Part shown: positions 20,132 through 46,736 of the stretch, in pieces | Position numbering within the stretch: the stretch's first letter is position 1 | How the letters are laid out: each line of letters begins with the position of its first letter | From: Candidatus Cloacimonadota bacterium | Lineage (GTDB): Bacteria > Muiribacteriota > UBA6191 | Direction of reading: 5' to 3' | Assembly (NCBI GenBank): GCA_023954715.1 | Contig: JAGSHD010000001.1 | Location: 236,468 to 300,467, forward strand | DNA: 64,000 bases | The notes under the pieces: generated by a model | The model's input: only the letters and a program-made list of their open reading frames with translations | Told to the model about the DNA's origin: nothing | The model's database searches: none | Program-made: the position numbers and the translations under genes

Positions 20132-21163
20132 ATGACACGACTATACACTCTTTTCTTATTCACCCTACTAATTCTAGTCAATCAATCTATTGCTGAGTCT
20201 GACATTTTCACCAGTTTTGATAATCGATATCAAGAAATCACCAATGAACCTGTTCAAAAAAATGTACAAATCCCAACAAGTAATGGAATAGCCGTCTTAG
20301 ATTTGAAATTGGCCCTTCTTTTACATCCCGCAATGAAAGATTATAACTTTACTATTCATAGTTTCATCAAACCCATACCTAAAAATTTAAATGTACCAAT
20401 CAACTTCTACCTAAAAAATAGGATCAAAGAGTCTAGTGAAATGGTACTGAAATCCAAAAAAACATATAAAGATTTACGACTTAAACAACTCGAAGTACAG
20501 CAAAAAATCTCTTCATTGATATATAATAAGTCCAGTAATATCCGTAAGATTATGTCCAGTAATCGAGGTGACACAGAAAGCCAACTAGAAAAGTTTCGTA
20601 GTGACTATCAAAAAAAGCTCAAAAGATACCAATTACAAAAGTTAAGTATCACCAAAGACATTGTAAATACTTTTGATACTTCTTATGGTATCCATTACAT
20701 GACCCGAACCGACCGTGATCGACTATTGAAAAAGATAGAGAAAGAGGTCTTACTTGCTGCTAAAAAAGTACTTAATTCTCAAAACTTATCTGTACTTCTA
20801 AATGGTAACTATCTAGAAGATGTAGCTCCTCAAACAATCTCCAAATTAGCATGGGTAGATAAAAATTTTACTGGGGTGAATGCTTTAAGTTTTTACTTTC
20901 AACGCCAACATCAAGTTATAGATGACGAAATACAATCGTACTCAGAACAGATCGGAGCTGACTTGTTTGATCCTTATTACAAAAACCTAAATAAAATCCC
21001 TGCGATTTTCGGTAAAAATTATAATGATCAATTTATTTTACTTGGTGGAAAAAACATAACAAAAGCAACCCTTCAAGTTTTATATCAAAAATATAACAAA
21101 TTAAATCTAATCAAAGACATTTTAAGTTTCGTTCAAAAAATAAAAGAGAATCAACATGAATAA
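20132..21163 (+). CDS. exported coiled-coil protein, possibly Skp/OmpH-like periplasmic chaperone; translationally coupled to the giant gene
   Basis: The ATG at 20132 follows a GGAG RBS. Signal peptide MTRLYTLFLFTLLILVNQSIA. Skp-like N-terminal block NGIAVLDLKLALLLHPAMK. Long K/Q/E-rich coiled coil. The stop TAA overlaps the next ATG (ATGAATAA). Confidence 0.5.
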   Translation: MTRLYTLFLFTLLILVNQSIAESDIFTSFDNRYQEITNEPVQKNVQIPTSNGIAVLDLKLALLLHPAMKDYNFTIHSFIKPIPKNLNVPINFYLKNRIKESSEMVLKSKKTYKDLRLKQLEVQQKISSLIYNKSSNIRKIMSSNRGDTESQLEKFRSDYQKKLKRYQLQKLSITKDIVNTFDTSYGIHYMTRTDRDRLLKKIEKEVLLAAKKVLNSQNLSVLLNGNYLEDVAPQTISKLAWVDKNFTGVNALSFYFQRQHQVIDDEIQSYSEQIGADLFDPYYKNLNKIPAIFGKNYNDQFILLGGKNITKATLQVLYQKYNKLNLIKDILSFVQKIKENQHE

Positions 21164-24100
21164 ACATATCCTATTTATCACTGTATTTTTTTATCTCGCA
21201 ATACAATGTAGTTATGCAGTCATTGGCAATAAAGACGATGCCATCAACCAAATTAAAATCAGAAACGGTGACGTTTATGTTTTAGTAAATCCCAACCTTG
21301 CTTCAGGCGTACCTACCTCGAGTGCTTATGGACTTTGGAGATTTTATCGTGGGAATGACTATCCTGATGATACAAAATATAAACGACAAAAAATGTCTAA
21401 GTTTCCTGTACCAAACAACACCAATAAATATTCTGGTTTAACAGTAGATAAGTTTGCTAAGGTTTACGTCTTTAAAGAAATTCCAGACGCGGGTCAGACT
21501 TCCTTGGTTACTCTTGGTAACACTCACCCTATTTTAGAAACTGGCACTTTTCCTGGTTTTGTAGATACAGATAATTCAAAGATGAAAGTAGGAACCGATT
21601 GCGCATCAGAAAGAGCTGTAAAAGGATCCCCTCCTGGTTGGGTTTATGTCATCACAGATGACGGAAATGAAGGTTGGGTAAAGTACTACGATACAACAAC
21701 TCATGGTAGCCTAGGAATGGTGGAAACACTCACTGAAAAACCAGGAGTTAAAAATGCTATTGATGGGCTAGGCGGAACGATTTTACCTCCTGCTTTTAAA
21801 TCTTCGGCTGCAAACTTTTATTATACAGCTCACGGAGGCTTTTGGACGGGTAGTGCATCAAACCCTACCCACGGAATAGAAATCGCTGGTGCTACTGGTA
21901 GCCCAGGAAGACCTGCTCCAAACCCAACCTTTTGTGGAAATCCTGGTAAAGCCAATGGTGATCCAAGATATCCTGAATGGGGATATAATAAATGGCCTGG
22001 ATCTCCTTGTGGATCTAAATTATATCCAAGTCTTGGAGCCTTTTTTATGACTCCTGCTAAGTCTACTCATGCCGCTGATGGTGGTAAGGGGACTAATGTT
22101 GCAGCCGTTCGAGTTTGTTCTGTAAGTAAAGAAGTACGTAAGTTATTCTTTGATAGATATATCGAAGGTACAGATCACGATATTTTAAAAGACTCTAAAC
22201 CTTTTTTGGGCTTGACCAATGATGATCTTTTTTCTGGTCCACCAAGTGGAGTTGGGGACGGTAAACTAATATCAGGGACAATCCCTGTTTCTGTATCAGT
22301 AGGTTCACTCACTCGATATGCCCGATTCAATCATTGTGGAGATATGTGTGGAGCACCAGGTCAAAGTTCACCTCCTATTCCAACAACTCCAGGTAAAGCA
22401 GTTGGAGCTATGTCATCCTTTGGTACTAAAGATAGTGAACAGCGAAAATACGTTTTAAAATCATCTAGCTCTGGTGGAAACCCCGAGACTTGGGTGATGC
22501 AAATTGATGGAAATGGTTCTACAGGTACCTTAGGTCGTACTCCATTAGTAAAAAGAGACGGTGGTGTTTTTGATTTTAATGGAGCTACTGGTATAGACTT
22601 TGACCCAGAAACAAGTGCACTTGGATCTAGATTTGCAGCCAGCGAGTATATTGGTTTTAGAGATACTGGGTCAGGAATTGGTCACATTTCAACAATTCAA
22701 GTTTCTAAAAGAGATGATACAAAGGATTGGGTATATACTTCTAACCCAGCTAACCCTCAATTTTTCAGAGTATCTGAAAGCTTTTGGGGAACAGGCGGAA
22801 TCCAGTGGATCTTAAAAAACCCAAATAATGCTACTATCGAGTGGTTACAAGTCAACCACGAAACCGGTATTGAAATTTCTAAAGATAGTATGGATGTTAA
22901 CAATGCCAATCCTATTGTAGCTTTTGGGGTGGATGGTGACGGTAAGGTTTATTGGCTAGAAAAATCTTTCCAAGAAAGTCTTGTCCAACTTACAGACACT
23001 CTAGGTGGAACCTCTCCTACATGGGAGAAAATCTCTAATTCTGGTAAATTAGTAGCTCCTACTGTTACTCCTGTGTTAACTCCGAGTGCCGGCGAATCTG
23101 GTGTACCCATTTTAGTAAAAATCTCAAGAGATAGTGGGCTTGGTCTCTTTAAATCAGCCATCGGTGTAACTACTCCATTTTTTATTGGTACCTTACCAAC
23201 TGGTGGCGTAATATGTGAGCGAACTTTCATCTCTGTTTCTGGTGATCCTACTAAAGCAGGATATTGGTCTGAAGCTGCGTGGAGTGGTCAATTTTGTGAT
23301 ACACCAGACAACACTTTAGCTGTTGATGTAGAAATGGCTGTAATCAACGTGGCTAACCCTCCATTATCTGAAGGGGATTTTGTTTTAGATATTGTTGATG
23401 TACCTGACATTTTAGAGGGACAAAAAGTAACTTTTTACATGGAAAACCCTCCTAGATTTAATGGGCAAAAAGCTCAACTAGCCGGAGCAGGAAGCAACAC
23501 TGCTTTTGCTCCATACAATTGCGCTCCGGATGCTGTACTACGATCTTTCTCAGAAAGTCCAGGTGCCTTTGATGGTTATGTTCGTATGGTATCTAACGAA
23601 AATGCTACAGGGTCAAGACCTGTATTAGACGAGTTAAAGCTTTTAACTGAAGTGCGAAACACTGGTGTTCAAACAAAATCAGGTACTGCTTGGACTTATG
23701 AAGACTCTGATGTAGTCATTGGACAAAACCTTCCTGCTTTTGTTTATGAAGATATTCCAAGCCCTCTGATCTCAAGCTCTGGTCCTTGTGCTGGAGGATT
23801 TCCTGTAAAAAAACTGGGAGTTAATAATAAAACACTTAGATATAGATGGATGGTAAAAGCTTTGACTCCTCCCATGAGTAAAAAAACAAATCATCCAAAG
23901 TTAACCGAGCTTGGTTTACCTAACCAATGTGATAACCCAACAACTGACCCAGCTTATGTTGAGCCAAAGTTAAAAGAAATTCCTGGTCTTATTTTCGCCA
24001 GTTGTTTTGAGGATGTCCCTCTTCACTCTGATCCTGCAATGGCAGCACTTGATCAAACAGAAGTCAAATCTCCAGATATCGAGTTTCCAGATCCTGGATC

Positions 24101-27100
24101 TTATGAAGTAATCTTAGAGTTAGTTGGATTAAGATGGGATGCAGATGGGCTAACCTTTGCGGATGACTCCACTGGTGTATCTTATGAAGTTACAAAAGCT
24201 GTAGCTAGCTACATTGTAAATGTTCATCCAATGCAAGCCCAGCTAGATGGTTCTGTAAGTGATGTACACATCATGAACAACTACGGATCATATACCTCTC
24301 CTGACTCTACTTGGGATGGTACTCCTTTAGTTGAAAATAGCGTTACTGGTAATGCAGCCCACCTTGAAGTAGTAGAAGGGTCTCCTTTTCCTATGGTTGC
24401 AGAAGTTACCATTGATTTTTTTAGAGCTCCAGATAAAGAGTATGCGAGTGACTCAACGGACAAAACCATGAAAAAGTATGATGGTGTTGGAGTCTGGGAT
24501 TACACTTATCCAGGAACAGTTCATGACAAAACAATGGTCCATCCTATGAACTTCGCTAGTGGCCCTACTGGATTACCTGGTGAAGTTGGAGAAGTAGACC
24601 AAGATGCCGGAAATGATGCCACAGCAAATTATGATACAAGTCCCGTACTTTCTCAAGCAGGAACAGTTCTTACCCCTATCTTTTATGACCCCAATGATAT
24701 ATCTCTATCTACTAAATTAAACCATATTCAAGGCACCTATAGTTTAGATCGTTACTACTCCCATGGTGTAGGAGGAGCAACACCTAACGGCCTAGAAAAT
24801 ACTTATGAGTCTATGTTTGATTGGTATGAAATAAAATACTATTGGTTTTACAGATACAAAGACCCAGTGTCCGGTCAAAAAACTGCTCCAAAATTATTTA
24901 GAAAAGGAAACTTATCTGAAATATGGGCAATACATAATTTAGCATCAGTAGCTGGTAAAGACTCCATCATGCCAAATGATATCCAAGATTCATCCAACTT
25001 CTGGAACGATGGTGAGTTGATTAAAGTCCTTGACCCAGATCGTCGTACCTATAAAGTTCGTATTCCGCTGTTTAAAAACCAGTTACTACTGGATGATGGC
25101 TCTCCTGTTGAAGACCGAGTTATGGATTGGACTAAATTAGGTAATCCAGACTTTTCTGCTCTTACTCCTGCCAATGTAGTAGCAGGTGGCGTCAATCGAG
25201 TGGATGCAAACTTAGGTTTATATGATTTTAAAGTTCCAAGTGAGCCTAGCTCTATCGAGTTTAGCTTTTATATTGACTACCCTATTGTTAAATGGTCAAA
25301 GCGAAACCAGCAAGGACATACTTTAGATGCTGATCATGTAAACGAAACCGTTTCTTCTGATATAGCAGCTGAACAAGGTACAACCGACAAAGCAACACTT
25401 TTAGCTAATATGGACCTAGATGCAACTTATTATGATTTGGTTCCTTGGGGACCACGTTCTGATGCTCTTGGTGGAAACAACTCTGATATGAACGATTCTA
25501 TCCGATCTTATAACAGTAATGATCCTAGACTTTTGGCAAACTCTGTATCTGGTTGGGGAAACATCGGTGCATATCGTACCAAAGGTGGACTCTACACAGC
25601 TACCGAAGCTAGCAGTGGAGGAATGAATGCTGATGGTAGCTACTCCAAAGATGATGGCACCGAAAACGATCATTGGTTTGATGTAATCGTATTGGATAAT
25701 ACCCCTCCTTCCATATCTTATGTAAACAATCTTGGAGATGAACCTTCAATGACAGGAGCTTTCTCCACATTTAGTTTTGAATCAAAAGTCGGAGGTATGT
25801 GGGATAGTAATGATGGAGTTGTAATTTCTGTAATGGATAACAACCCCTACCAGCACTGGTTAAACTACAAAGCATTTGATGCTGCTTCTCCAGAGATTGA
25901 GCCTTATAGTCCATATCTTCAACAATTTTACTATGATCTAGGACCAGATCCTAGAAACCTTCTCGGTTTAGGAGCAAAAGATAATGGCTCAACAGCACAA
26001 CCATGTGTTTGGGGGTATTCCATCTCTAATCCCCTATCTCCACTTAAAGCAGAAGCTGGCAATGGAGCTGGGTGGCTTAATCCTTTTGGACAAGAAGAAA
26101 ATCACTTTAACACCAATATCGTGACGCACCAGCAACCAGGATGTAGTTATCAGCACCCATTTACTTCTATGGCCTTTAGTGATCAAAGCTTCGTACGGCA
26201 TGATACTGGTACATTTAATCTTGCCAATATTTTAGATAGTGGTACAGTAAAGTTTACTCCACCAGCTACTCTTTTAAGTGGATCAATCTACGATGAAGGA
26301 GTGGTCGCTCCCGTAAATAATAGCTATTACTCAATACAATTTAAAACTAAAGTTGATAATGTATCTGGAATCCCTATCCCAACCGAGTATGGTGCTGAAG
26401 CGGGAGGAGAAATCAAGTTTATCGACAATCCTGGTAATTATCAAGCCATGGATGGCAGCTCAGTAAATATATCATTTCAAACTACTTCGTTTTTTGCTGG
26501 AAACTTTGATGCTACAGGAGACACGGGAGTTTTAACACCTCAAGAGACCTTTAGAGATCAAGCATATCGTACAGCTTTTTATTGGGTGCCAAAAGATGCA
26601 CTTATATCTCCATATTTCTTTGGTGCTAACTCTGGAGGACAAGAAACATATAAGGCCTATGCTAGAGCTTATGATATCTCTAGAAAACATGGTAGCTTAG
26701 CTCATCAAGGTTTAGCACGTGAAGACGTGGGTACTTCTTTAGGCACACTCGATCAAAGACCAAACTTAAAGGCTACTGAAATTGGGGACTATACTATCCA
26801 TGACAATAGAGAACCCAACATTAAAGTTACATTTTTCGATTACAAAATGAACTCATTATTCAAATTTATCATTTTAAATGATGCTAGCCACCATCATCAA
26901 CAGTCACAAGCTGGACTATTTAGTAAACACAGTATTTTACTTAAATCAAAAGATCCTCGAGATAGCTATTATTTAAAAGCTGGAGATCAAGCACAAGCAA
27001 CGATTTCATCTGGTAAATTAACAGTTACTAGTGACTATGATCTAGCAAATCCAAGCTCTGTTACTGGTCTTGCCGCTTATGGGACAGATGCTTCTGGTTT

Positions 27101-27476
27101 GGGTAACTTTCTTGTAAAGATTCCTGAAGATGTACGGTTTAGAATTAAAGCAGAAGCTGTAGACAATGTGACTTTACCGGCCAATCTCAATATCACTGTC
27201 GAAAGTGATATGACTGGATTTAGCCTTAATACTTCTCAAGGTGCTTTAGTACCTACAGAAGATCCCTTTGAAGCAAAAGTTACTACGGTTAGAGATTATC
27301 AATTTCAAGGGTTTACATCTAACTTTTGGCAGTACCCTAGACCTGGTAGATATGATGTAATTAAAATCACTGTTTCAGATGAGCAAGGTAATACTCGTAT
27401 GATTCGATTTCCAATTGAAATTATGCCACAAGACCTACACTTTAGAAAAATCGGTGATAACTCAAGAATTAAATAG
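21156..27476 (+). CDS. giant exported protein (2106 aa), unknown function; Gly/Thr/Ser/Asp/Pro/Trp-rich, non-repetitive
   Basis: 6.3-kb uninterrupted ORF in a stop-rich AT genome. Signal peptide MNKHILFITVFFYLAIQCSYA. No obvious internal tandem repeats or known catalytic motifs. Confidence 0.75.
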   Translation: MNKHILFITVFFYLAIQCSYAVIGNKDDAINQIKIRNGDVYVLVNPNLASGVPTSSAYGLWRFYRGNDYPDDTKYKRQKMSKFPVPNNTNKYSGLTVDKFAKVYVFKEIPDAGQTSLVTLGNTHPILETGTFPGFVDTDNSKMKVGTDCASERAVKGSPPGWVYVITDDGNEGWVKYYDTTTHGSLGMVETLTEKPGVKNAIDGLGGTILPPAFKSSAANFYYTAHGGFWTGSASNPTHGIEIAGATGSPGRPAPNPTFCGNPGKANGDPRYPEWGYNKWPGSPCGSKLYPSLGAFFMTPAKSTHAADGGKGTNVAAVRVCSVSKEVRKLFFDRYIEGTDHDILKDSKPFLGLTNDDLFSGPPSGVGDGKLISGTIPVSVSVGSLTRYARFNHCGDMCGAPGQSSPPIPTTPGKAVGAMSSFGTKDSEQRKYVLKSSSSGGNPETWVMQIDGNGSTGTLGRTPLVKRDGGVFDFNGATGIDFDPETSALGSRFAASEYIGFRDTGSGIGHISTIQVSKRDDTKDWVYTSNPANPQFFRVSESFWGTGGIQWILKNPNNATIEWLQVNHETGIEISKDSMDVNNANPIVAFGVDGDGKVYWLEKSFQESLVQLTDTLGGTSPTWEKISNSGKLVAPTVTPVLTPSAGESGVPILVKISRDSGLGLFKSAIGVTTPFFIGTLPTGGVICERTFISVSGDPTKAGYWSEAAWSGQFCDTPDNTLAVDVEMAVINVANPPLSEGDFVLDIVDVPDILEGQKVTFYMENPPRFNGQKAQLAGAGSNTAFAPYNCAPDAVLRSFSESPGAFDGYVRMVSNENATGSRPVLDELKLLTEVRNTGVQTKSGTAWTYEDSDVVIGQNLPAFVYEDIPSPLISSSGPCAGGFPVKKLGVNNKTLRYRWMVKALTPPMSKKTNHPKLTELGLPNQCDNPTTDPAYVEPKLKEIPGLIFASCFEDVPLHSDPAMAALDQTEVKSPDIEFPDPGSYEVILELVGLRWDADGLTFADDSTGVSYEVTKAVASYIVNVHPMQAQLDGSVSDVHIMNNYGSYTSPDSTWDGTPLVENSVTGNAAHLEVVEGSPFPMVAEVTIDFFRAPDKEYASDSTDKTMKKYDGVGVWDYTYPGTVHDKTMVHPMNFASGPTGLPGEVGEVDQDAGNDATANYDTSPVLSQAGTVLTPIFYDPNDISLSTKLNHIQGTYSLDRYYSHGVGGATPNGLENTYESMFDWYEIKYYWFYRYKDPVSGQKTAPKLFRKGNLSEIWAIHNLASVAGKDSIMPNDIQDSSNFWNDGELIKVLDPDRRTYKVRIPLFKNQLLLDDGSPVEDRVMDWTKLGNPDFSALTPANVVAGGVNRVDANLGLYDFKVPSEPSSIEFSFYIDYPIVKWSKRNQQGHTLDADHVNETVSSDIAAEQGTTDKATLLANMDLDATYYDLVPWGPRSDALGGNNSDMNDSIRSYNSNDPRLLANSVSGWGNIGAYRTKGGLYTATEASSGGMNADGSYSKDDGTENDHWFDVIVLDNTPPSISYVNNLGDEPSMTGAFSTFSFESKVGGMWDSNDGVVISVMDNNPYQHWLNYKAFDAASPEIEPYSPYLQQFYYDLGPDPRNLLGLGAKDNGSTAQPCVWGYSISNPLSPLKAEAGNGAGWLNPFGQEENHFNTNIVTHQQPGCSYQHPFTSMAFSDQSFVRHDTGTFNLANILDSGTVKFTPPATLLSGSIYDEGVVAPVNNSYYSIQFKTKVDNVSGIPIPTEYGAEAGGEIKFIDNPGNYQAMDGSSVNISFQTTSFFAGNFDATGDTGVLTPQETFRDQAYRTAFYWVPKDALISPYFFGANSGGQETYKAYARAYDISRKHGSLAHQGLAREDVGTSLGTLDQRPNLKATEIGDYTIHDNREPNIKVTFFDYKMNSLFKFIILNDASHHHQQSQAGLFSKHSILLKSKDPRDSYYLKAGDQAQATISSGKLTVTSDYDLANPSSVTGLAAYGTDASGLGNFLVKIPEDVRFRIKAEAVDNVTLPANLNITVESDMTGFSLNTSQGALVPTEDPFEAKVTTVRDYQFQGFTSNFWQYPRPGRYDVIKITVSDEQGNTRMIRFPIEIMPQDLHFRKIGDNSRIK

Positions 27477-33354: not shown

Positions 33355-33393
33355 AAAAAGCCCTCTATTCTTTTGAGTAGAGGGCTTTTTTTT
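33355..33393 (+). terminator. rho-independent terminator
   Basis: aaaaaGCCCTCTAttcttttgagTAGAGGGCtttttttt directly after the SLH-porin stop. Confidence 0.8.
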
Positions 33394-33614
33394 ATACTTT
33401 CAAATCAACGTAAATGTTAGTTGTAAAAAAATAAGCCTTAAACTAACTTAAAGCTTACATAAAAACTATGTAACTATTAAGCTACAATTTTTCAATTTGT
33501 CCACAATGGTATATACCATTTAGATACATCAACAAAGTAGAAACTGCGAAAAACTTGTAACTTCCTCTCCTTTTATCGGAGTGACAACTTAAATAATTAC
33601 AAAACTATAATGAT

Positions 33615-34763
33615 TTAATATAGTGAATAGTTCTCCATAACATCAAAGATATGTTGTCCCTCTTGTACAGCACTCGAGGAAGTCATATTAATCATAATAC
33701 AATCATCATTACAAACAACAGGAGTCAAAGCTTGATTTAGATTTAAGTCCTCATTCAAATGAGATAGATTTAATAATCTAACTATAGAGTCCCCTTTTTT
33801 AGAAAACTCTCCCGGTAGGGTATCGTAGTGTAAAAAACCTCCAGATGGAGCATAATAGGTCTTAAAATCATCCAGATTGCAGTAATATTGATGGATTTGC
33901 GTGTCTACTTTTGGGTCCTCTAACAAAAACCCCTTTTTATAGAGATAATTTAAAACACCTTGTAAATCTTGCTGCGCTTTATCTAAATCAATTTTTTCTT
34001 GTGAACCTAACTCCAGAGTATAAGCTTCTTGATCAACTTTAAAGTCTCTATTTTGCTTTTTCAACTCACTAGCCAAATTTAGCCAAGGCATAAAAGAAGC
34101 TTCATCTAAGGCCCCCGAAAAATCATGTGGTATGAGTAAAGTATGTTTAAAAAGTAAATCTTTAGCAGAATCTTTAGAATACTCAGGCGCGTATAACCAT
34201 CGAGTTGCCACTCCCCCAGTATGTAAGTCCAAAACATAATCAGCTTGAGTTGACATTAGCTGTAAATGAATAGCTAGTAGATCATCATCACTAACTCCAT
34301 ATGAAGAGTGTAAACAACCTTCAAGATGCTTTTTCATAAAAGATTTGTAGGCAATAACAATCTCTTTATCTGATAGAGATAAGTTCTTTTTTATAAAATC
34401 GGGTAAGTTAAAATCATCTTTAGAGTATTCATCTTTCAACTCACTAAAATTTAGATAATTTCGGTTCCAGTTATTACCCGAATTTGGATTATATCTACCA
34501 ACCGTATAGTCCCCTGATTTTAAGTTTACACCAACTGGATTAGCCATAGGGTTGATAGTGATAGAACCACAAAAAGAGTGGGACTTTAAATAGGCTAACA
34601 AATGATAGATTAGAGCGTTTCCTTGTAGCTCCGCTCCATGAAGCGAAGATTGTACATAGACGTGAGGACCTTCTTGATCACTCTCTATATCAAACACCGT
34701 TAATTTATGATTTTCTCCATTAGTTCGTTCTTTTAAAGGAACCGTTCTTTTGGTTACTTTCAT
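33615..34763 (-). CDS. AstE/AspA-family (succinylglutamate desuccinylase/aspartoacylase-like) zinc deacylase; last gene of the lys/dap operon
   Basis: HVYVQSSLHGAELQGNALIYHLLAYL resembles the Zn-binding H-x-x-E region of the AstE_AspA family. There is an 8-nt gap after lysA on the same strand. Confidence 0.55.
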   Translation of the reverse strand: MKVTKRTVPLKERTNGENHKLTVFDIESDQEGPHVYVQSSLHGAELQGNALIYHLLAYLKSHSFCGSITINPMANPVGVNLKSGDYTVGRYNPNSGNNWNRNYLNFSELKDEYSKDDFNLPDFIKKNLSLSDKEIVIAYKSFMKKHLEGCLHSSYGVSDDDLLAIHLQLMSTQADYVLDLHTGGVATRWLYAPEYSKDSAKDLLFKHTLLIPHDFSGALDEASFMPWLNLASELKKQNRDFKVDQEAYTLELGSQEKIDLDKAQQDLQGVLNYLYKKGFLLEDPKVDTQIHQYYCNLDDFKTYYAPSGGFLHYDTLPGEFSKKGDSIVRLLNLSHLNEDLNLNQALTPVVCNDDCIMINMTSSSAVQEGQHIFDVMENYSLY

Positions 34764-34771
34764 TATTTCTC

Positions 34772-35965
34772 CTATCTAAGCCACCATGAGGCATCAACAC
34801 TATCTCTTAATATCTTTGTTTTTTTATCTTTTACGATTACTTCTGCTGGTAAATCATGACATAAAAAAAATGGCATGCTTTCAGTAAAGCCATAAGCTCC
34901 GCATTGAGAAAATAACAACACATCCCCTATTTTTGTATCGTCTGGCAAGTTGTGTAGTCCTACAGTATCTAAAGAGCTACACAAAGGTCCATGTAATTGA
35001 AACTCTCTCAATTCGTCTTTCGAACTAGATAAAGATTTTATAGGAAAAGATTGATTTGTTAAAACAGGTCGAATCAAATGATTCATTCCCCCTTCTAAAA
35101 CCAAAATATCTTTACCTCGAACTATCTTTCTATCAATTACATGACTCATGTAATAACCAAATTCACCAATAGCAAAACGCCCTAATTCAATGTAGATCTC
35201 TTCAAAAATATTTTCACTTAAAACTTTTGATAAGTAGGTGCAGACTTGAGTCATATCAAGAGGACTCCCATTGGCATAAGGAATCCCCCATCCTCCTCCA
35301 AAATCAATCACTTTACAAGCTACATTGATTTGTGTAGCCAAATTTTGACACTCATGAATTATGCTTTTCCATATAGTGTATAACTCTTGAGCATCTAGGA
35401 TGTTTCCCCACTGAAAAACATGAAACCCTTCAAATCTTAAAAAAGAGTATTTATCTACAGCAACCTCTTGCCATTGATCTATATCCAAACCAAAAGCTGT
35501 AATATTATTGCCTCCAAGCACTGACTCTCCAGACTCAGGCCAGACTAGCTGAACTCGCAATAATACTCTTGGGGTTAGATCTAGAGACTCTGATAACTCA
35601 TTCAAGTCATATAATTGAGTTTTACTCTCAATAACAAATAGATTAACACCTTTTTTTAAATAAATTTCTAAATGTTTTTTACTTTTTGCTGGTCCTGTTA
35701 CAATAATATCTTGTGGATTTACCCCGCAAGACAAAGCTTGTTTAAACTCTCCAATACTAGCTACATCAATCCCAATTTTATTTTTATTTACACATTTTAT
35801 AACAGAGGATAAAGGGTTTGCTTTTGTTGCATAATAAGCTTTCACCTGTGTTGGTAACGATTGGACTAGATCATTTAAGTGGATATCAAAACTATCAATA
35901 TCATAAACAAATGTTGAACCCTGTTGCTGAGAATAAATCTCTCTAAACTGATCCTCTTGAATCAT
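34772..35965 (-). CDS. lysA: diaminopimelate decarboxylase (fold-III PLP decarboxylase)
   Basis: PLP-lysine motif YATKANP. Orn/DAP/Arg decarboxylase architecture. Sits in the dap operon and overlaps dapD by 4 nt. Confidence 0.7.
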   Translation of the reverse strand: MIQEDQFREIYSQQQGSTFVYDIDSFDIHLNDLVQSLPTQVKAYYATKANPLSSVIKCVNKNKIGIDVASIGEFKQALSCGVNPQDIIVTGPAKSKKHLEIYLKKGVNLFVIESKTQLYDLNELSESLDLTPRVLLRVQLVWPESGESVLGGNNITAFGLDIDQWQEVAVDKYSFLRFEGFHVFQWGNILDAQELYTIWKSIIHECQNLATQINVACKVIDFGGGWGIPYANGSPLDMTQVCTYLSKVLSENIFEEIYIELGRFAIGEFGYYMSHVIDRKIVRGKDILVLEGGMNHLIRPVLTNQSFPIKSLSSSKDELREFQLHGPLCSSLDTVGLHNLPDDTKIGDVLLFSQCGAYGFTESMPFFLCHDLPAEVIVKDKKTKILRDSVDASWWLR

Positions 35966-36705
35966 CTTAGAGCTTCTTCAAGGGTTAATGATGCATCACT
36001 TTTATCATCTCTATATTTAATAATGATAGGACAATTTAACTGAAGACCCTGAACATTTGCCCATTTATTACTTGGATTAAATGGTCGTGTCCCTGAGACT
36101 ACAACAGCTCCCGTTGGAACATCAGCCCCTCTTTCTAAAATTTCATTATTTACTGCATCATAGATAGATACGCCTCTAGACAAAGTTACTCCAGGAGCAA
36201 TCACAGCTCTTTCTCTCACAACGATTCCTTCAACGATAACACTACCAGCTCCCACAAATACATTATCTTCTAGTACTACAGGAGCCATTCCAATAGGCTC
36301 TAAAACTCCACCGATTTGCACTCCAGCCGATAGATGAACATGTTTCCCTATTTGGGCACATGATCCAACTAATGCGTGAGAGTCCACCATAGAGCCTTCA
36401 TCTACATAAGCTCCCACATTGATATAGGCTGGAGGCATGATAATTACACCCTTAGCAACATAAGCACCTCGTCGTACAGAAGACCCTCCTGGTACTAAAC
36501 GAACACCATCATCTACAGTAAACTCTCTAGGCATTAAAGTATCTTTATCTACAAAACCATTAAAAGCTACACTAGCTCCTGCTTTGAATGCTTCTAAAAT
36601 AGAGTGTTTTACTCGTATATCTGCTTCCCATTGCCCTTTTTCATTTTTATTGGCTGATCTCAGCTCACCACTCTCTAATTTATCTAATACTTCATCAAAA
36701 GTCAT
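35962..36705 (-). CDS. dapD: 2,3,4,5-tetrahydropyridine-2,6-dicarboxylate N-succinyltransferase
   Basis: Strong identity to E. coli DapD across the hexapeptide-repeat core ([40 protein letters not shown] vs [40 protein letters not shown]). Confidence 0.85.
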   Translation of the reverse strand: [247 protein letters not shown]

Positions 36706-36739
36706 ATAATATCCGTTTGTAAATAATGTTTGTATCTAA

Positions 36740-37654
36740 CTATCTCTCAAAAACTAAAGGCGCACTAAATTTTTGCATTTCAGTGTCGTACCATGCCATC
36801 ATTTTAGCATGAGCTTTTGCCACTAATACATGGTTATCAAAATCTAAAATTGTTAACGGAGCTTTTAAATTAGGAGTCGAAATTTTATTCAAAGAGTCCA
36901 GCAACGCTTTAACAGGAATTGGGTTAGTCGAACAAAACATGGCAGCAGAACAAAAGTCCCAGGTTTCTTCTGATGAGAAACTTCCCTCTAAACACTGCTT
37001 TACGTAAAGGTTTGTCTCGTGGGGCCAAACGTTTGAAGAAACAGAAACAAGACCTTTTGCGCCATGTTTTGCAAATTGGGGTAAAAGTCCATCATCGCCT
37101 GAATACACTCTAATCTTTGGCGCTGCTTCTACGAACTCTGCAAAACTCTCAACAGATCCGCTTGCTTCTTTTATAGCCCAAAAGTTTTCATGGTTTTGTA
37201 AATCTTTAACCGTCTCTATGTGTAAAGATATACCGGTTCTTGATGGGACATTGTAAAGCATACATGGTTTTATTGCTAAATCCAAAAGTTGTTGAAACCA
37301 CGCTGTCTGACCATGTCTAGAAGGTTTCATGTATAAGGGAGTCACTAATAGATAAGCATCCAAATTTAAAGTATTAATATACTCTACCCAATTTGTAGTA
37401 TTTTCTATATTTATACCACCAACTCCTACCATTAAAGGAGTATCTGGAGCTAAATTAATAACATAACTTAAAATAGACTTTTTTTCTTCTAAAGATAAGC
37501 AAAGAGATTCACCCGTTGAACCTAGTAACAGTATTCCATTTTTAGCTCTTGATTGCTCCTCTACCAAAGTAGACAAACTTATAAAATCAATAGAACCATT
37601 GTCATTCAAAGGGGTTACTAATGCTGTCCAGCATTTAACTTCATTCAATTTCAT
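36740..37654 (-). CDS. dapA: 4-hydroxy-tetrahydrodipicolinate synthase
   Basis: TALVTPLNDNGSIDF...LLLGSTGESLCLSLEEK...YNVPSRTG are DapA/DHDPS motifs. Confidence 0.8.
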   Translation of the reverse strand: MKLNEVKCWTALVTPLNDNGSIDFISLSTLVEEQSRAKNGILLLGSTGESLCLSLEEKKSILSYVINLAPDTPLMVGVGGINIENTTNWVEYINTLNLDAYLLVTPLYMKPSRHGQTAWFQQLLDLAIKPCMLYNVPSRTGISLHIETVKDLQNHENFWAIKEASGSVESFAEFVEAAPKIRVYSGDDGLLPQFAKHGAKGLVSVSSNVWPHETNLYVKQCLEGSFSSEETWDFCSAAMFCSTNPIPVKALLDSLNKISTPNLKAPLTILDFDNHVLVAKAHAKMMAWYDTEMQKFSAPLVFER

Positions 37655-38316
37655 CTCATTCCTTCCAAAACCAAATCTCTAAACTCATATAAACCTGGTT
37701 GTCTTTTTTTAAGCAGTTGATTTGCTGCCCATATTGCACCACTAGCAAACAATGCCCTATCCTGTGCATCATGACTTATTTTCAAGGTTTCATAAGGTGT
37801 TTCAACTTTTAGCTCATGAAACCCTATTACATCACCTTCTCTTGCAGAAGATATCTCACAGTCCTGAGACACCCAATCCTGCCATTTAAGCGCCGTACCA
37901 CTCGGAGCATCAAGTTTTTTAGTATGATGTACTTCGTGAATACTATAATTAGAGTTTTCAAATAGATCCGAAAATCCATTTAAAGACTCTAGTATTGACT
38001 GGACCACATTCATAACTAAACTAAAATTGGCTGCTAAAACCCATTTGGATTGGCTAGCTATAATATTAGCCTCCAAATCATCTGGTAAATCAAAGCCTGT
38101 CGAACCGCTTACTACTGGTATTTTACTATCAAGTAAAATGGGGATGATTGACACAAACACGTCCCCTGACACAAACACAATAGCAACATCACACAGCAGT
38201 AAGCGTTCAACACTAACCTTATTTTTTGAATCAAAAACTACAACTTCGTAATCTTTTGATAACTCAGCTACTTTAGAGCCAGTTTTACCATTACCTATCA
38301 GAGCAATTTTTTTCAT
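37651..38316 (-). CDS. dapB: 4-hydroxy-tetrahydrodipicolinate reductase (short form)
   Basis: N-terminal dinucleotide-binding KIALIGNGKTGSKV. Positioned between lysC and dapA with 4-nt overlaps. Shorter than canonical DapB (221 aa), hence moderate confidence. Confidence 0.55.
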   Translation of the reverse strand: MKKIALIGNGKTGSKVAELSKDYEVVVFDSKNKVSVERLLLCDVAIVFVSGDVFVSIIPILLDSKIPVVSGSTGFDLPDDLEANIIASQSKWVLAANFSLVMNVVQSILESLNGFSDLFENSNYSIHEVHHTKKLDAPSGTALKWQDWVSQDCEISSAREGDVIGFHELKVETPYETLKISHDAQDRALFASGAIWAANQLLKKRQPGLYEFRDLVLEGMR

Positions 38317-39656
38317 TGCTCTGCCTCTTCTAAAAATTCTTTATGTAGAATTTTAACGACTTCTTTACTATTTGAACTATCTACTAAAAAGCATACATTA
38401 TGAGAGCTAGCCCCCATACACAACATTCTAATATTATGATTTGTTAAGTTTAAAAATAGCTTTTGGGCTATACCTTTAGTGTGAGTAATGTTGTTTCCAA
38501 CCAAAGCTATAATACTAAGGTTTTCTTCGAAGTCGATTTGTCCAAACTTAGCTAACTCTTTAATAAACTCTTCATTTTCTTTTATATCCTTATCAATACT
38601 AACAGCTATAGAAATTTCACTCGTAGTAATAAGATCAACACTAATTTTAAAGTTAGAAAAAACTTCAAAAACACTAGCCAAGAAACCACACGCTTCTAGC
38701 ATTCTAGGGTTTTTTATGGTAAGTAAATATTGATCTTGTTTTAAAGCAATGGCTCTAACTATGGGTTTTTGATCCACATGACTTTTTATATATGTCCCTA
38801 AAGTGTCTGGTTCAAAACTTGATGCTAAATAAACCGGAATATCACATTGAATTGCCGGAATCAAAGTACTAGGATGTAATATTTTTGCCCCAAACGTAGC
38901 TAACTCAGCAGCTTCGTCAAAGCTTAACTCATTAATTGATAAGACATTTTCTACAATCCTAGGATCTGTAGTTTTCATTCCCGCCACATCAGTATAAATT
39001 TTAAGTTCTTTTGCTTGTAAGGCTTGTGCCATTAATGCTGCGCTCAAGTCACTTCCACCGCGGCCTAAGGTAGTTGTCACCCCTTTGGCATTGCTCCCAA
39101 TGAAACCTTGCGAAACAATTATGTAATCCTCATTTAATAGAGGATACATCAAGTCATTCACTTTATTTTTGATCTCATCAATCTGAGGTTTTGCACTACA
39201 ATGATTTGAGTCAGTCATCATAACATTTCGAATATCAAAGTTTTTACACAAGCGGTCTCTTTGCTGAATCACATAGCTAAGTAGTAATGAAGAAAGCCTC
39301 TCTCCAATCGAAAGAATCCGATCTTTGGTTCTACTAGAGCAATCATGCAAATATGAAATCCCAAGGGCCAAAGTATGTAGCTCATTGATTAAGGTATCGA
39401 TGGCATAAAACACATCTCTAGAACAGCTTAAATCAGAAGCGATTTGATAATGCTTTTCTTTTAATTTAGTGACTATAGCAACAGATTGAGAAAAATCCTG
39501 ACAAATCTGAACTAGATCATTAGTAGTGCCGCTTGTTGCCGATACCAAAACAACTTTATGGAGAGGGTCAGACAAAACTATGTCAGCGCATCGAGTAATA
39601 CACTCAGCATCTCCAACGGATGTTCCACCAAATTTACAAACTATATAATTTTTCAA
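38313..39656 (-). CDS. lysC: aspartate kinase
   Basis: N-terminal IVCKFGGTSV signature. ACT domains at the C-terminus. The preferred start is the TTG at complement(39654..39656), preceded by a GAGGAAAG RBS. The ORF-track start (GTG at 39737) lies inside the riboswitch. Confidence 0.85.
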   Translation of the reverse strand: MKNYIVCKFGGTSVGDAECITRCADIVLSDPLHKVVLVSATSGTTNDLVQICQDFSQSVAIVTKLKEKHYQIASDLSCSRDVFYAIDTLINELHTLALGISYLHDCSSRTKDRILSIGERLSSLLLSYVIQQRDRLCKNFDIRNVMMTDSNHCSAKPQIDEIKNKVNDLMYPLLNEDYIIVSQGFIGSNAKGVTTTLGRGGSDLSAALMAQALQAKELKIYTDVAGMKTTDPRIVENVLSINELSFDEAAELATFGAKILHPSTLIPAIQCDIPVYLASSFEPDTLGTYIKSHVDQKPIVRAIALKQDQYLLTIKNPRMLEACGFLASVFEVFSNFKISVDLITTSEISIAVSIDKDIKENEEFIKELAKFGQIDFEENLSIIALVGNNITHTKGIAQKLFLNLTNHNIRMLCMGASSHNVCFLVDSSNSKEVVKILHKEFLEEAEQ

Positions 39657-39720
39657 GATCTTTCCTCTATATAATAAGAAGAGGAGGAAAGTTTTAAGAA
39701 TTTGAGTTTTATAAACCCAT

Positions 39721-39882
39721 CTTAAGAAGCTCCCCACATGAATTGTGACAGTTTATAGCGTTCAAACATACAAACCAGCTAATAAATACTTCAATTATTT
39801 ATCGCTTCGGCGGCAATTCCGTTATCACTGGTCCTTGGATATTGAGATCCTAACAGTGACTATCTAATTGTCGCTCCTCTTC
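39721..39882 (-). ncRNA. lysine riboswitch (L-box) in the lysC leader
   Basis: Minus-strand sequence AAGAGGAGCGAC...TTGCCGCCGAAGCGATAAATAA...TATTAGCTGG...CTGTCACAATTCATGTGGGGAGCTTCTT matches B. subtilis lysC L-box blocks (AGAGGTGCGAAC / GTCGCCGAAGCAAATAAAAC / TATTTGCTGG / CTGTCAAG...TGGAGGGCT). It is followed by CTTTCCTCCTC...GAGGAAAG, which could pair to sequester the RBS. Confidence 0.7.
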
Positions 39883-40323
39883 TTTGTTTTGACTGGATAG
39901 TAAGACATACTCCGTAAGTAAGCCTCCCTAACCATTCAATTCATATACATATTACTTGATTTTTTCAAAATTGCAAGGGTCAGTATAAAATCCTTACTAT
40001 AAGAGTTCAGTTCCTTACTACCTAAAACCAAAATCAAAGCTTAAAACTTTGTAACTATTCAGCTATAATTTTTCATTTTATTCACAAAGGCTGATTACCC
40101 ATAGGTTTTTGATCTTTGTTATATTTTGTATTTACAGCTTTTGAAGTGTAGTGAACTACTCGAAAAAAAACTTTAGATACAAAGGATGATGATGAGCTAA
40201 ACCGCATCAATAAAGCTAAAAATGCGAAAAGCTTGTATGCTCCTCGCATTTTATCAAAGAGATCACCTGAATAATTACAAAACTTTTTTATATGATTAGA
40301 GTGGATTAAATCTACTGTTAGCT

Positions 40324-43998: not shown

Positions 43999-45189
43999 TT
44001 GCTAAACGGAGATTATGATTATATGAAAAAAGAAACAGAAAACTCAGCACAAGTAGGCCGACTAAAATTTGAATCACATCACAGAAACATCTGGGATGAA
44101 ACGCCAGAAGAAGACTGGAACAACTGGATGTGGCAACAAAGTAAACGAGTTAAGACTATTCAAGCATGTGAAAAAGTTATCAACCTTTCAGAAGGTGAAA
44201 TAAAAGCATTTAAAGAGTCATCCGATAAATTTAATGTAGGGATCACTCCTTATTATGCAAGTTTAATGGATAAAGATGATGCTAACTGTCCAATTAGACA
44301 ACAATCTGTGCCACAAGTTGGAGAGCTATTAACTTTACCAGAAGATTTAGCAGATCCACTAAACGAAGAAGGAGATATGCCAACTCCTTGTATTACTCAC
44401 AGATACCCTGATCGAGTATTATTTTATGTAACTCATAACTGCCCTGTTTATTGTAGACACTGTACTAGAAAAAGAAAAGTAGCTGATCCTAGTTCAGCAA
44501 CTATGAACAAGCAGCTTGAAGATGCTTTTCAATATATTGAGTCCCACCCTGAAATTAGAGATATTGTTATTTCTGGTGGGGATCCACTTAGTTTAAGTGA
44601 CAAAAAATTGGATATGATCCTTACTCGATTACGATCTATACCTCATATTGAAATGTTTAGATTAGGTACTAGAAACTTAGTAACTCTACCTCAAAGAGTA
44701 ACTGATGAATTTTGTGAAATGCTAAAAAAACATCAGCCTGTTTATGTAAACACTCACTTTAACCATCCAAAGGAGTGTACTTATGAAGCTTATATTGCTT
44801 GTAAGAAGCTTGCTGATGCAGGATGTGTTATTGGTAATCAATCTGTGTTACTAAAGGGTGTAAACGATGACCCTGAAGTAATGAAAGAGCTTTCTCATAA
44901 ACTATTGGCCATGAGAGTTCGTCCTTATTATATTTACCAATGTGATCTTTCTGAAGGAATTTCTCACTTTCGAACCACAATTGAAGATGGTATTAATATT
45001 ATCGAGCACTTGAGAGGTCATACTTCTGGTTTGGCTAACCCTACTTTTGTTGTAGATGCTCCTGGTGGTGGTGGTAAAATCCCTCTACTACCTGAGTACC
45101 TAGTCAAAAAAGAAGGTAGAGAGTACACCCTAAGAAACTACGAAAATAAAGAGTTTGTTTACGTAGAACCAGAAAACAACAAAAACTAA
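43999..45189 (+). CDS. kamA: L-lysine 2,3-aminomutase (radical SAM, KamA family)
   Basis: CPVYCRHCTRKR (CX3CX2C) and end-to-end similarity to Clostridium KamA (ITPYY, THRYPDRVL, GGDPL, PHIEMFRLGTR, VRPYYIYQCDLS, HLRGHTSG, FVVDAPGGGGK). Confidence 0.85.
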   Translation: MLNGDYDYMKKETENSAQVGRLKFESHHRNIWDETPEEDWNNWMWQQSKRVKTIQACEKVINLSEGEIKAFKESSDKFNVGITPYYASLMDKDDANCPIRQQSVPQVGELLTLPEDLADPLNEEGDMPTPCITHRYPDRVLFYVTHNCPVYCRHCTRKRKVADPSSATMNKQLEDAFQYIESHPEIRDIVISGGDPLSLSDKKLDMILTRLRSIPHIEMFRLGTRNLVTLPQRVTDEFCEMLKKHQPVYVNTHFNHPKECTYEAYIACKKLADAGCVIGNQSVLLKGVNDDPEVMKELSHKLLAMRVRPYYIYQCDLSEGISHFRTTIEDGINIIEHLRGHTSGLANPTFVVDAPGGGGKIPLLPEYLVKKEGREYTLRNYENKEFVYVEPENNKN

Positions 45190-45261: not shown

Positions 45262-45963
45262 ATGAAAAAAAAATATCTTATCATCGCCCCAACTCCATGG
45301 GAGCTTCAAGCTATCTTAGATGTCTTTAAACCCTATATGAGTTTAAAAAAACATCCATTTACAATTCATTTATGTAGACATGATCATGTGGAAGTAAATA
45401 TCTATGCTAGTGGTATGGGAGTAGCTTCTACAGCATTTGCTGTGGGTTATGCCATGCAAAATTTTCATGTTTCAGAATTAGTATTAATGGGATTTGGTGG
45501 CATTACAAAAGATAGAAGTAATCTACTTGGAAAAATGACTATCGCGGCATCAGATAGGTACTTAAAATTTGGTGCTAAATCTCACAACGGATTTGAAGAC
45601 TTAAGTATTAAATATGATCTCTTATGTGATCACAATAACAAGCCTCCTTTTACATTTCATTCTCATCCTTGGATGCATGATATGTACGAGTCTCTTCATT
45701 ATGGTACTTGCGATGAACTTAGTAGCTCAGAGCCCGATTTAGACTTTTTAAGTAAAGTCTATCCAGATGTTTCTGTTGAAAATATGGAAGGTGCAGCCTG
45801 TGCACAAATTGCAAACCTATATAATATTCCATGTATACAAGCTAGAGCCATTACTAATATGGTAGCTAATCGAGATACAAAATCTTGGTTGATGGAGCAA
45901 GCTAAAGCTGAAATCTCCAATTTTTCAAAGCATTTACTATCGTATTGGACTCAGCTGAAATAA
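45262..45963 (+). CDS. PNP/MTA-nucleosidase-superfamily hydrolase, probably futalosine hydrolase (MqnB-like)
   Basis: PNP_UDP_1-like pattern IYASGMGVASTAFAVGY...LMGFGG. Adjacent to, and overlapping, the MqnA/MqnD-family gene. Confidence 0.5.
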   Translation: MKKKYLIIAPTPWELQAILDVFKPYMSLKKHPFTIHLCRHDHVEVNIYASGMGVASTAFAVGYAMQNFHVSELVLMGFGGITKDRSNLLGKMTIAASDRYLKFGAKSHNGFEDLSIKYDLLCDHNNKPPFTFHSHPWMHDMYESLHYGTCDELSSSEPDLDFLSKVYPDVSVENMEGAACAQIANLYNIPCIQARAITNMVANRDTKSWLMEQAKAEISNFSKHLLSYWTQLK

Positions 45964-46736
45964 TGAAGCTTGCGATTTCTCCTTGTCCAAATGATACCTT
46001 CATTTTTTATGCTCTATTACACCAAAAAATTAAAATAGATTTTGATATTAATGTGCAGTATGAAGACATCGCCACATTAAATCAGTGGGCTATTGATCAA
46101 AAATTTGATTTTATTAAGTTAAGCTTTGGATGTTACCCATATATTAAAGATAACTATCACTATCTACAGTCAGGATCGGCATTAGGACATGGCTGTGGTC
46201 CTTTACTGTTAGCTAAGGGTGACAAGACGGTTTTCGATAATCAAAGTCGAGTGGATATTCCTGGTAAATATACTACGGCCAATTTATTGCTAAACCATTT
46301 CTATCCAAATTTGACAAATAAAACAGTCTGCCTATTTTCTGAAATTACCGAGCGGCTACTACAAAACAAAAGTGATCTAGGATTAGTTATTCATGAAACT
46401 CGTTTTACATATCACTTACAAAATTTAAACAAGATTGCCGACCTTGGACAGTTATGGGAAGAAAAGTATAACTTACCAATACCCCTTGGTGGAATATTCT
46501 ATAAAAAGTCCATATCTCAAGATATGGTCCTTGAAATGCAAACAGCAATAGAAAAAAGTATCGAGTACTCTTGGAACAATCAAGATGAAGTCCTTGAGTT
46601 TTGTCAGCAATATGCCCAAGAAATGGATAAAGATGTAATGCTTCAACATATAAAATTGTATGTTAATGAGTACTCTTTAAAACTTGGATCCTTAGGTAAT
46701 CAAGCAATCGAACACTTGTTTAACACAGCACCCTAA
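45963..46736 (+). CDS. menaquinone-via-futalosine protein, MqnA/MqnD family
   Basis: Family motif LAISPCPNDTF from the ATG at 45963, overlapping the upstream stop as TAATG. ~257 aa, typical for MqnA/MqnD. Confidence 0.6.
   Translation: MKLAISPCPNDTFIFYALLHQKIKIDFDINVQYEDIATLNQWAIDQKFDFIKLSFGCYPYIKDNYHYLQSGSALGHGCGPLLLAKGDKTVFDNQSRVDIPGKYTTANLLLNHFYPNLTNKTVCLFSEITERLLQNKSDLGLVIHETRFTYHLQNLNKIADLGQLWEEKYNLPIPLGGIFYKKSISQDMVLEMQTAIEKSIEYSWNNQDEVLEFCQQYAQEMDKDVMLQHIKLYVNEYSLKLGSLGNQAIEHLFNTAP

Follow-up and report, generated by a model that had tools for sequence, protein, structure and literature searches.

A riboswitch-controlled lysine operon ending in a CphZ-like deacylase, and its possible part in an N2-succinyl-lysine route

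Lysine biosynthesis through diaminopimelate (DAP), a textbook pathway, has four accepted variants, and one of its enzymes, DapE, is pursued as an antibiotic target. In the aminoadipate pathway, the LysK/ArgE-type N2-acetyl-lysine deacetylase provides a precedent for lysine synthesis that ends with the deacylation of an N2-acyl-L-lysine. Here we analyze a 64-kb stretch of contig JAGSHD010000001.1 (the whole stretch is referred to as the window), which carries a six-gene lysine operon at 33615-39656. The last two genes of this operon encode a LysA-like decarboxylase and its neighbor, an AstE/AspA-like deacylase that we call X (33615-34763). The operon has been listed before, with its hypothetical genes left without comment (PMC5584792), and a literature search found neither a published role for X in lysine synthesis nor an N2-succinyl-lysine route. 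On the evidence of gene neighborhoods and active-site residues given below, X is probably the biosynthetic desuccinylase of the lysine branch, whether its substrate is N2-succinyl-L-lysine or N-succinyl-DAP.

The lysine operon and its conservation

The riboswitch and the genes of the operon are as follows, in the order of transcription:

39719-39889, minus strand: lysine riboswitch aptamer, RF00168 (80 bits in cmscan with Rfam, gathering score 30; E=2.7e-19; match over the full model, 1-182)
39657-39718, minus strand: expression platform, probably translational (sequence, RNA fold and terminator scan)
38313-39656, minus strand: lysC, lysine-sensitive aspartokinase with a TTG start (NF006570 553 bits against a cutoff of 455; AA_kinase and ACT domains)
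37651-38316, minus strand: dapB, 4-hydroxy-tetrahydrodipicolinate reductase, short at 221 aa (DapB_C 85.9 bits, DapB_N 28 bits; TIGR00036 99 against a cutoff of 122)
36740-37654, minus strand: dapA, 4-hydroxy-tetrahydrodipicolinate synthase (TIGR00674 268 bits against a cutoff of 206)
35962-36705, minus strand: dapD, tetrahydrodipicolinate N-succinyltransferase, short form (NF008808 286 bits against a cutoff of 204)
34772-35965, minus strand: lysA-like, non-canonical fold-type III decarboxylase dependent on pyridoxal 5'-phosphate (PLP), proposed N-succinyl-LL-diaminopimelate decarboxylase (TIGR01048 193 bits against a cutoff of 298)
33615-34763, minus strand: X, CphZ-like AstE/AspA zinc deacylase, proposed N2-succinyl-L-lysine (or N-succinyl-DAP) amidohydrolase (PF24827 72.9 bits against a cutoff of 25)

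An earlier reading of this DNA from its letters alone (the sequence-only reading) had described six co-directional genes under a lysine riboswitch. A check of the open reading frames (ORFs) confirmed the coordinates and placed all six on the minus strand, and the RF00168 match, which exceeds its gathering score, lies on the same strand directly upstream of lysC. The junctions had been described as 4-8-nt overlaps or gaps, which fits four of the five (-4, -4, +34, -4 and +8 nt in order from lysC to X, minus denoting overlap) but not the 34-nt gap between dapA and dapD. Of the enzyme names that had been given, those of LysC, DapA and DapD are supported by scores above the model cutoffs; DapB falls below its cutoff (99 against 122), and the canonical identity given to LysA was not borne out (193 against 298).

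A scan of one genome per species yielded 80 X loci, in Bacteriovoracaceae and marine Gammaproteobacteria, and the genes neighboring X were typed by tblastn with the window's own enzymes. Lysine genes lie directly upstream of X in 76 of the 80 loci, with the following architectures:

dapA–dapD–lysA-like–X: 34 loci (Pseudoalteromonas, Photobacterium, Cognaticolwellia and others)
lysC–dapB–dapA–dapD–lysA-like–X: 16 loci (Bacteriovoracaceae)
lysC–X: 15 loci (Shewanella)
lysC–dapA–dapD–lysA-like–X: 3 loci (Psychrobium and relatives)
dapD–lysA-like–X: 2 loci (Thalassotalea eurytherma, L071, and an Alteromonadaceae metagenome-assembled genome (MAG), L041)
dapA–X: 2 loci (Thalassotalea, Thalassomonas)
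cut by a contig end: 4 loci (dapB–dapA–dapD–lysA-like–X in one, lysA-like–X in three)

Ferrimonas has lysC–dapD–lysA-like–X, Facilibium has the full six-gene operon, and asd divergently adjoins the operon in 13 Bacteriovoracaceae-type loci. The dapD–lysA-like–X block, whose products would carry out the three succinyl-handling steps of the pathway proposed below, is contiguous in 57 loci out of the 80 and also in Ferrimonas. A lysine riboswitch was detected upstream in 67 of the 72 loci that have upstream sequence (nhmmer profile), and Rfam recognized it in six of seven loci, in every architecture class tested; the spacing from lysA-like to X is 1-8 nt in most loci. Chance is thus far from sufficient to explain why X is linked to lysine supply, and the suggestion of the sequence-only reading that the deacylase is a functional member of this operon is upheld by the upstream lysine genes, the riboswitch and the close spacing behind lysA-like.

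The named relatives of the window X come from Halobacteriovorax and Bacteriovoracaceae. A neighbor-joining tree unites the riboswitch-linked X proteins in a single clade, apart from the cyanobacterial homologs and from the cyanophycin dipeptide hydrolase CphZ, and the dapA–X cases are nested within cassette-bearing lineages. The distant homologs (cyanobacterial, ~30% identity; one acidobacterial, 41%) have neither riboswitch nor lysine genes; their neighbors are an ATP-binding cassette (ABC) transporter in the cyanobacterial case and a TonB receptor in the acidobacterial one.

Within the expression platform, the stretch CUUUCCUCCUCU is complementary to the Shine-Dalgarno sequence AGAGGAAAG and has the 5' strand of P1, AAGAAGAGGAG, as an alternative pairing partner. 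The RNA fold has an energy of -62.5 kcal/mol (z=-2.9). Because the terminator scan found no terminator-like site between the aptamer and the lysC start, control at lysC is probably translational, a mechanism deduced from these pairings. The TTG start of lysC (39656) is preceded by a GAGGA Shine-Dalgarno sequence; a longer GTG ORF reaching 39737 was set aside, as it would overlap the riboswitch.

The DapD of the operon appears to be of the succinyl type, scoring above the cutoff of NF008808 but only 91 bits against 232 with the acetyl-type model TIGR03532. The short DapB (221 aa against ~270), which lies below the equivalog cutoff, has a shortened N-terminal domain, and the short form (221-227 aa) recurs in related operons.

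Active sites of X and the LysA-like decarboxylase

The sequence-only reading had assigned X to the zinc deacylases of the AstE/AspA family. This was confirmed: the PF24827 match is above the gathering score (E=3.3e-20), the peptide that had been quoted, HVYVQSSLHGAELQGN, is present, and the zinc site is intact. X has the AstE/AspA (M14-like) fold, not that of M20, and could be a DapE only as a non-orthologous analog. The best matches in the PDB are 3LWU and 3FMC (E ~1e-75), followed by AbCphZ (8EIN, 8EIP); the only NCBIfam match, to DoeB, scores 16 bits, the cutoff being 403. An AlphaFold 2 model of X (predicted local distance difference test score 89.9) has a two-domain fold, and its template-modeling (TM) scores are 0.91-0.96 to 3FMC/3LWU, 0.80-0.84 to CphZ, 0.65-0.75 to DoeB-type enzymes and ~0.45-0.55 to AstE and aspartoacylase. 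The possibility that X is a true AstE or aspartoacylase was rejected on the lack of an equivalog match and on the latter TM range (AstE structures 1YW6, 2BCO).

The roles of the CphZ residues were defined by Sharon et al. (PMC9974463). We aligned 119 CphZ-family proteins with 73 X proteins and compared the residues at these positions:

Zinc ligands: H50/E53/H179 in CphZ, H42/E45/H181 in X; identical in 73/73 X
Catalytic base: E251 in CphZ, E251 in X; identical in 73/73 X
Clamp on the C-terminal residue's alpha-carboxylate: R102/N112/R113 in CphZ, R90/N100/R101 in X; identical in 73/73 X
Cation pocket for Arg/Lys: D222/E223 in CphZ, D220/E221 in X; identical in 73/73 X
CphZ D181 (beta-aspartyl contact): Asp in 119/119 CphZ, replaced by Gly in 72/73 X
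CphZ S216: Ser in 119/119 CphZ, replaced by Phe in 71/73 X
CphZ K366 (beta-aspartyl contact): Lys in 119/119 CphZ; varies in X between Lys, Gln and, in the window, Asp

X has thus retained the basic-side-chain pocket of CphZ but seems to have lost what contacts the amino group of the aspartyl part. In CphZ, D181 is one of two residues within hydrogen-bonding distance of the aspartyl moiety, and we infer that it contacts the amino group specifically. Mutation of S216 halves the activity of CphZ, the position of this residue relative to the substrate being unstated (PMC9974463). N2-succinyl-lysine is the CphZ substrate beta-Asp-Lys minus its amino group, and the active site of X appears suited to a basic amino acid that is acylated at N-alpha with a group lacking the aspartyl amino group. 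That the acyl pocket decides specificity is indicated by the failure of AbCphZ to cleave N2-succinyl-arginine (PMC9974463). The only invariant basic residues of X are R90, R101, K82 and the zinc-binding His; its acidic D/E pocket would fit N2-acyl-lysine better than N-succinyl-DAP, because the distal end of N-succinyl-DAP also bears a carboxylate. A canonical CphZ, as suggested for 3FMC and 3LWU, was rejected on the D181G and S216F replacements and on the gene context.

The neighboring decarboxylase was doubted as an ordinary LysA on its score, its best matches and a change of Glu to Thr or Ser. Its top NCBIfam match is TIGR03099, a model for an exosortase-associated decarboxylase, and NCBI names its clade only 'PLP-dependent decarboxylase'. 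In the PDB the best matches are BtrK (142 bits), SbnH (135), Aquifex LysA (119), Thermotoga LysA (107) and E. coli LysA (47); FslC gave 33 bits in the PDB search, and the FslC model 43 bits against a cutoff of 500. BtrK is a glutamyl-acyl carrier protein (ACP) decarboxylase. SbnH, annotated in the PDB as 'probable diaminopimelate decarboxylase', is, we take it, the N-citryl-Dap decarboxylase of staphyloferrin B synthesis.

The PLP lysine (K48), the catalytic Cys (C329), R263 (in ELGR) and R299 (in RP) are conserved in at least 99% of 174 clade members, and both Arg residues for the distal carboxylate of DAP are retained. What differs is the C-E-S-G-D motif of LysA, which reads C-S-S-L-D in the window and C-T-x-L-D in the clade. 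In place of the Glu after the catalytic Cys there is Ser in the window, Thr in 59/59 locus copies, Thr or Ser in 118 of the 120 database homologs that match best, and Thr in 98% of the clade; in addition, RPxxT replaces the RPxxY of LysA. The C-T motif, a Phe/Tyr for the second His and a C-terminal FLxH motif are common to this protein, BtrK and SbnH. A search for basic residues that might hold the succinyl carboxylate gave only His296 and His370, both of which also occur in BtrK and SbnH.

In Thermotoga LysA, the equivalent Glu (E315) binds DAP's distal amino group, and the E315T variant, whose meso-DAP activity falls from 675 to 26 mU/mg, becomes a 2-aminopimelate decarboxylase (PMC8277567). 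With the Arg residues kept and the distal-amine Glu replaced, as in E315T, the LysA-like decarboxylase is predicted to prefer a substrate bearing a carboxylate, but not a free amine, at its distal end. Of the intermediates after DapD, only N-succinyl-LL-DAP fits this prediction. The loss of the residue that reads the free distal amine of DAP therefore suggests that decarboxylation precedes desuccinylation.

A proposed order of steps and its rivals

The sequence-only reading had suggested X as a replacement of DapE in an operon missing only the N-succinyl-LL-DAP desuccinylase step. No M20-family DapE is present in the window, as it had stated: tblastn with E. coli proteins gave no match to DapE, DapF or ArgD, and a Pfam sweep of 39 of the 40 other window ORFs of at least 150 aa, which omitted the 2106-aa plus-strand ORF at 21156-27476, found no M20 peptidase, aminotransferase or DapF. 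Nor were dapE, dapF or argD-like genes found beside the cassette in the 80 loci (tblastn, +/-10 kb), or an aminotransferase in the Pfam-annotated flanks of further loci. The DapE step is not, however, the only one missing. The operon lacks asd, dapC and dapF in addition to dapE, so the context does not single out desuccinylation. Moreover, Pseudoalteromonas, Shewanella, Photobacterium and the other cassette-bearing gammaproteobacteria presumably possess a canonical dapE, in which case X is not a simple DapE replacement there. Membership in a desuccinylase family and in a lysine operon still speaks for the replacement proposed earlier, but the acidic pocket, the non-canonical decarboxylase, the other absent genes and the dapE expected in gammaproteobacteria speak against it. 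Even the fullest operons, with asd adjacent, contain no dapF, dapE or ArgD-like gene; the canonical-pathway operons that a riboswitch controls in Thermotogae, by contrast, do have dapF, together with genes for an aminotransferase and an amidohydrolase (PMC5584792).

We tentatively prefer a model in which this operon encodes a branch of the succinylase pathway with an altered order of its last steps, the LysA-like decarboxylase acting before X; the substrates of the two enzymes and the order of their steps are what we infer from the observed gene order, riboswitch, conservation, catalytic sites and residue changes. LysC, DapA and DapB, with Asd encoded elsewhere, would make tetrahydrodipicolinate, DapD would succinylate it, and an unlinked aminotransferase would make N-succinyl-LL-DAP. 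The LysA-like decarboxylase would then act on the free L-center of N-succinyl-LL-DAP to give N2-succinyl-L-lysine, which X would hydrolyze to L-lysine and succinate. DapE, DapF and meso-DAP would be bypassed, and lysine would switch the branch off via the riboswitch. Such a branch may constitute a fifth variant of the diaminopimelate route—a lysine-only shunt on a riboswitch-controlled, apparently mobile dapD–lysA-like–X cassette. The model would explain why a dapD–lysA-like–X core recurs, why no operon contains dapF or dapE, in contrast to the Thermotogae operons, and why gammaproteobacteria whose pathway is presumably complete retain the cassette.

Several points weigh against this order of steps. 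The Shewanella lysC–X operons (15) and the dapA–X operons (2) have no LysA-like decarboxylase or DapD within 10 kb, so that X would keep its value without an adjacent decarboxylase unless that gene lies elsewhere in those genomes. Conversely, one lineage (L087, L088, L096) has the riboswitch, a divergent asd, lysC–dapB–dapA–dapD–lysA-like and the C-T-A-L-D motif, but no X within 10 kb. The position of K366, a residue that in CphZ contacts the acyl carboxylate, is variable: gammaproteobacterial X proteins have Lys there, most of those from Bacteriovoracaceae Gln, and the window X Asp. Decarboxylation at an L-center is suggested only by the similarity to BtrK and SbnH, and the LysA-like protein could still be a DAP decarboxylase, given that the E315T variant of the Thermotoga enzyme (TmDAPDC) retains ~4% of DAP activity (PMC8277567). 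Finally, no report of N2-succinyl-lysine as a biosynthetic intermediate was found in the literature.

In a rival model, X hydrolyzes N-succinyl-LL-DAP to LL-DAP, and a DapF encoded elsewhere and the LysA-like protein, as a divergent but genuine meso-DAP decarboxylase, complete the pathway. The context evidence (dapD, a lysA-like gene, the lysine riboswitch) serves this DapE analog as well as the preferred model, no M20 DapE was found in the window or the 80 loci, the AstE/AspA family contains a true N-succinyl-amino-acid desuccinylase, and the lysC–X and dapA–X operons are easier to explain if the substrate of X is an intermediate of the normal pathway. The invariant, X-clade-specific Lys82 could even, speculatively, bind the distal carboxylate. 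Yet the side-chain pocket is the acidic Asp-Glu pair of CphZ, X has no invariant basic residue beyond R90, R101, K82 and the zinc-binding His, the decarboxylase lacks the Glu that reads the free amine of meso-DAP, dapF never occurs in the operon, and the cassette-bearing gammaproteobacteria are, from general knowledge, expected to own a dapE already; we consider a DapE analog quite unlikely. A role in salvage, in which X frees lysine from an externally derived N-alpha-acylated lysine (cyanophycin beta-Asp-Lys, N-acetyl- or N-succinyl-lysine, or the C-terminal Lys of a short peptide) and is merely co-regulated by the riboswitch, is also unlikely, if a little less easily dismissed. It draws on CphZ, the closest characterized enzyme, being a beta-Asp-Arg/Lys hydrolase, on the proposal of the CphZ authors that 3FMC and 3LWU are CphZs (PMC9974463), on the persistence of X in two-gene operons with just lysC or dapA, on the uptake systems beside distant family members (ABC transporter; TonB receptor) and on the control of lysine transporters, too, by lysine riboswitches, which is common (PMC5584792). 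Against it stand the replacement of the beta-aspartyl-side residues of CphZ (D181 by Gly, S216 by Phe), the inactivity of AbCphZ on N2-succinyl-Arg, the translational coupling of X to the LysA-like decarboxylase at the 1-8 nt seen in most loci, and the non-canonical decarboxylase itself, which salvage would leave unexplained. No transporter or cyanophycin gene lies beside X in the Pfam-annotated loci L042, L074, L086, L089 and L093-L095, the other X loci having been screened for lysine-pathway genes only. That X has nothing to do with releasing lysine and is instead, say, a housekeeping peptidase or a metabolite-repair enzyme carried along, is very unlikely: the 3FMC and 3LWU entries do carry no functional annotation, but the linkage to lysine genes and riboswitch has been kept over five operon architectures and two phyla, and the active site looks built for an N-acylated basic amino acid.

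A route in which an enzyme unrelated to DapE removes the succinyl group, possibly after rather than before decarboxylation, would be a further variant of the pathway. It would also give a function to the clade of the two orphan crystal structures 3FMC and 3LWU, set right the published guess of cyanophycin dipeptidases for them, and explain why NCBI has only the bare name 'PLP-dependent decarboxylase' for the LysA-like clade. Lysine supply would become separable from the supply of meso-DAP for the cell wall, and the riboswitch could stop the one without starving the other. The findings also bear on how the metabolism of predatory and marine bacteria is reconstructed and its gaps are filled.

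Surroundings of the operon and comparison with known systems

Three further features flank the operon:

33355-33390, no strand assigned: bidirectional terminator hairpin that ends the operon and a convergent porin gene (terminator scan; sequence)
33462-33606, no strand assigned: direct repeat bracketing the operon, downstream copy (blastn of the window against itself)
40043-40284, no strand assigned: direct repeat bracketing the operon, upstream copy, between lpxK and the riboswitch (blastn of the window against itself)

The two repeat copies are 77-85% identical, are the sole two in the window, and flank the riboswitch and the six genes; they would be consistent with the operon having been inserted as a cassette between lpxK and the porin gene, or with a repetitive extragenic palindromic (REP)-like element. 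Several flanking ORFs have no Pfam match. A lysine 2,3-aminomutase-like radical S-adenosylmethionine (SAM) protein (LAM_C and Radical_SAM domains), which may be of the EpmB type, is encoded 4 kb from the operon at 43999-45189, and the adjacent PNP_UDP_1 and VitK2_biosynth (MqnA/MqnD-type) genes at 45262-46736 suggest menaquinone synthesis via the futalosine route.

Some loci in other genomes show peculiarities of their own. In the L087/L088/L096 lineage an opposite-strand PilZ gene follows the operon in the place of X. In L095 an ADP-ribosyltransferase toxin-like gene (7230-7928; PF01129, PF03496) lies on the opposite strand between lysA-like and X. In L010 the riboswitch match (3800-3963) is ~1 kb upstream of lysC, with a weak same-strand Asd-like match (28% identity) between them; an extra gene may have joined the operon there. 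A conserved fifth gene ('hypothetical2', Mukherjee et al. 2017) was rejected, as the genes downstream of X differ among Pseudoalteromonas species, and the genes flanking the Shewanella and Thalassomonas loci are unrelated ones. Three MAGs labelled Sulfitobacter, Flavobacteriaceae and Bacteroidota (L004, L014 and L066) have a full Bacteriovoracaceae-type operon, with X nested among Bacteriovoracaceae, which looks like mis-binning or mislabelling. Relatedly, the window operon and its nearest relatives are of the Bacteriovoracaceae/Halobacteriovorax type, and the X tree groups the window with a Bacteriovoracaceae MAG; the Candidatus Cloacimonetes label of the source MAG is probably wrong.

Among known systems, the cyanophycin dipeptide hydrolase CphZ, also called AotO (PDB 8EIN, 8EIP; Sharon et al. 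2023), shares with X the fold, the zinc triad, the catalytic Glu, the carboxylate clamp and the cation pocket, at ~21-22% identity over the Foldseek structural alignment. The two differ on the acyl side (D181 to Gly, S216 to Phe, K366 variable) and in context: X sits in lysine-riboswitch dap/lys operons rather than in cyanophycin or aot clusters, and no cyanophycin or aot transport genes were seen in the annotated flanks of X loci. The Shewanella structural-genomics proteins 3FMC (Sama_0604) and 3LWU are X orthologs, 70-76% identical to the Shewanella X encoded behind lysC under the riboswitch; in Shewanella the gene follows lysC only, without dapD or lysA-like. The published suggestion that they are cyanophycin dipeptidases (PMC9974463) conflicts with the Gly at D181, the Phe at S216 and the lysC/riboswitch context.

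AstE, of the same Pfam superfamily, hydrolyzes an N2-succinyl-L-amino acid, but its TM score to X is ~0.45-0.55 and the side chain of its substrate is acidic, whereas the pocket of X is one for a basic side chain. DapE would hold the same or an adjacent position in the pathway, removing the succinyl group added by DapD, but has an unrelated fold with a two-metal M20 site, and its product feeds DapF and the meso-DAP of the cell wall; unlike DapE, X probably releases lysine directly. The LysK/ArgE-type deacetylases differ from X in belonging to the M20 family, in using an acetyl group or the LysW carrier, and in serving the aminoadipate rather than the DAP route. BtrK, SbnH and FslC, like the LysA-like decarboxylase, are of fold type III, and they act on L-centers of substrates with a distal group that is either acylated or bound to a carrier. 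The LysA-like decarboxylase differs from all three in keeping the LysA-type RP Arg for a distal carboxylate and in residing in a lysine operon rather than in a siderophore or antibiotic cluster.

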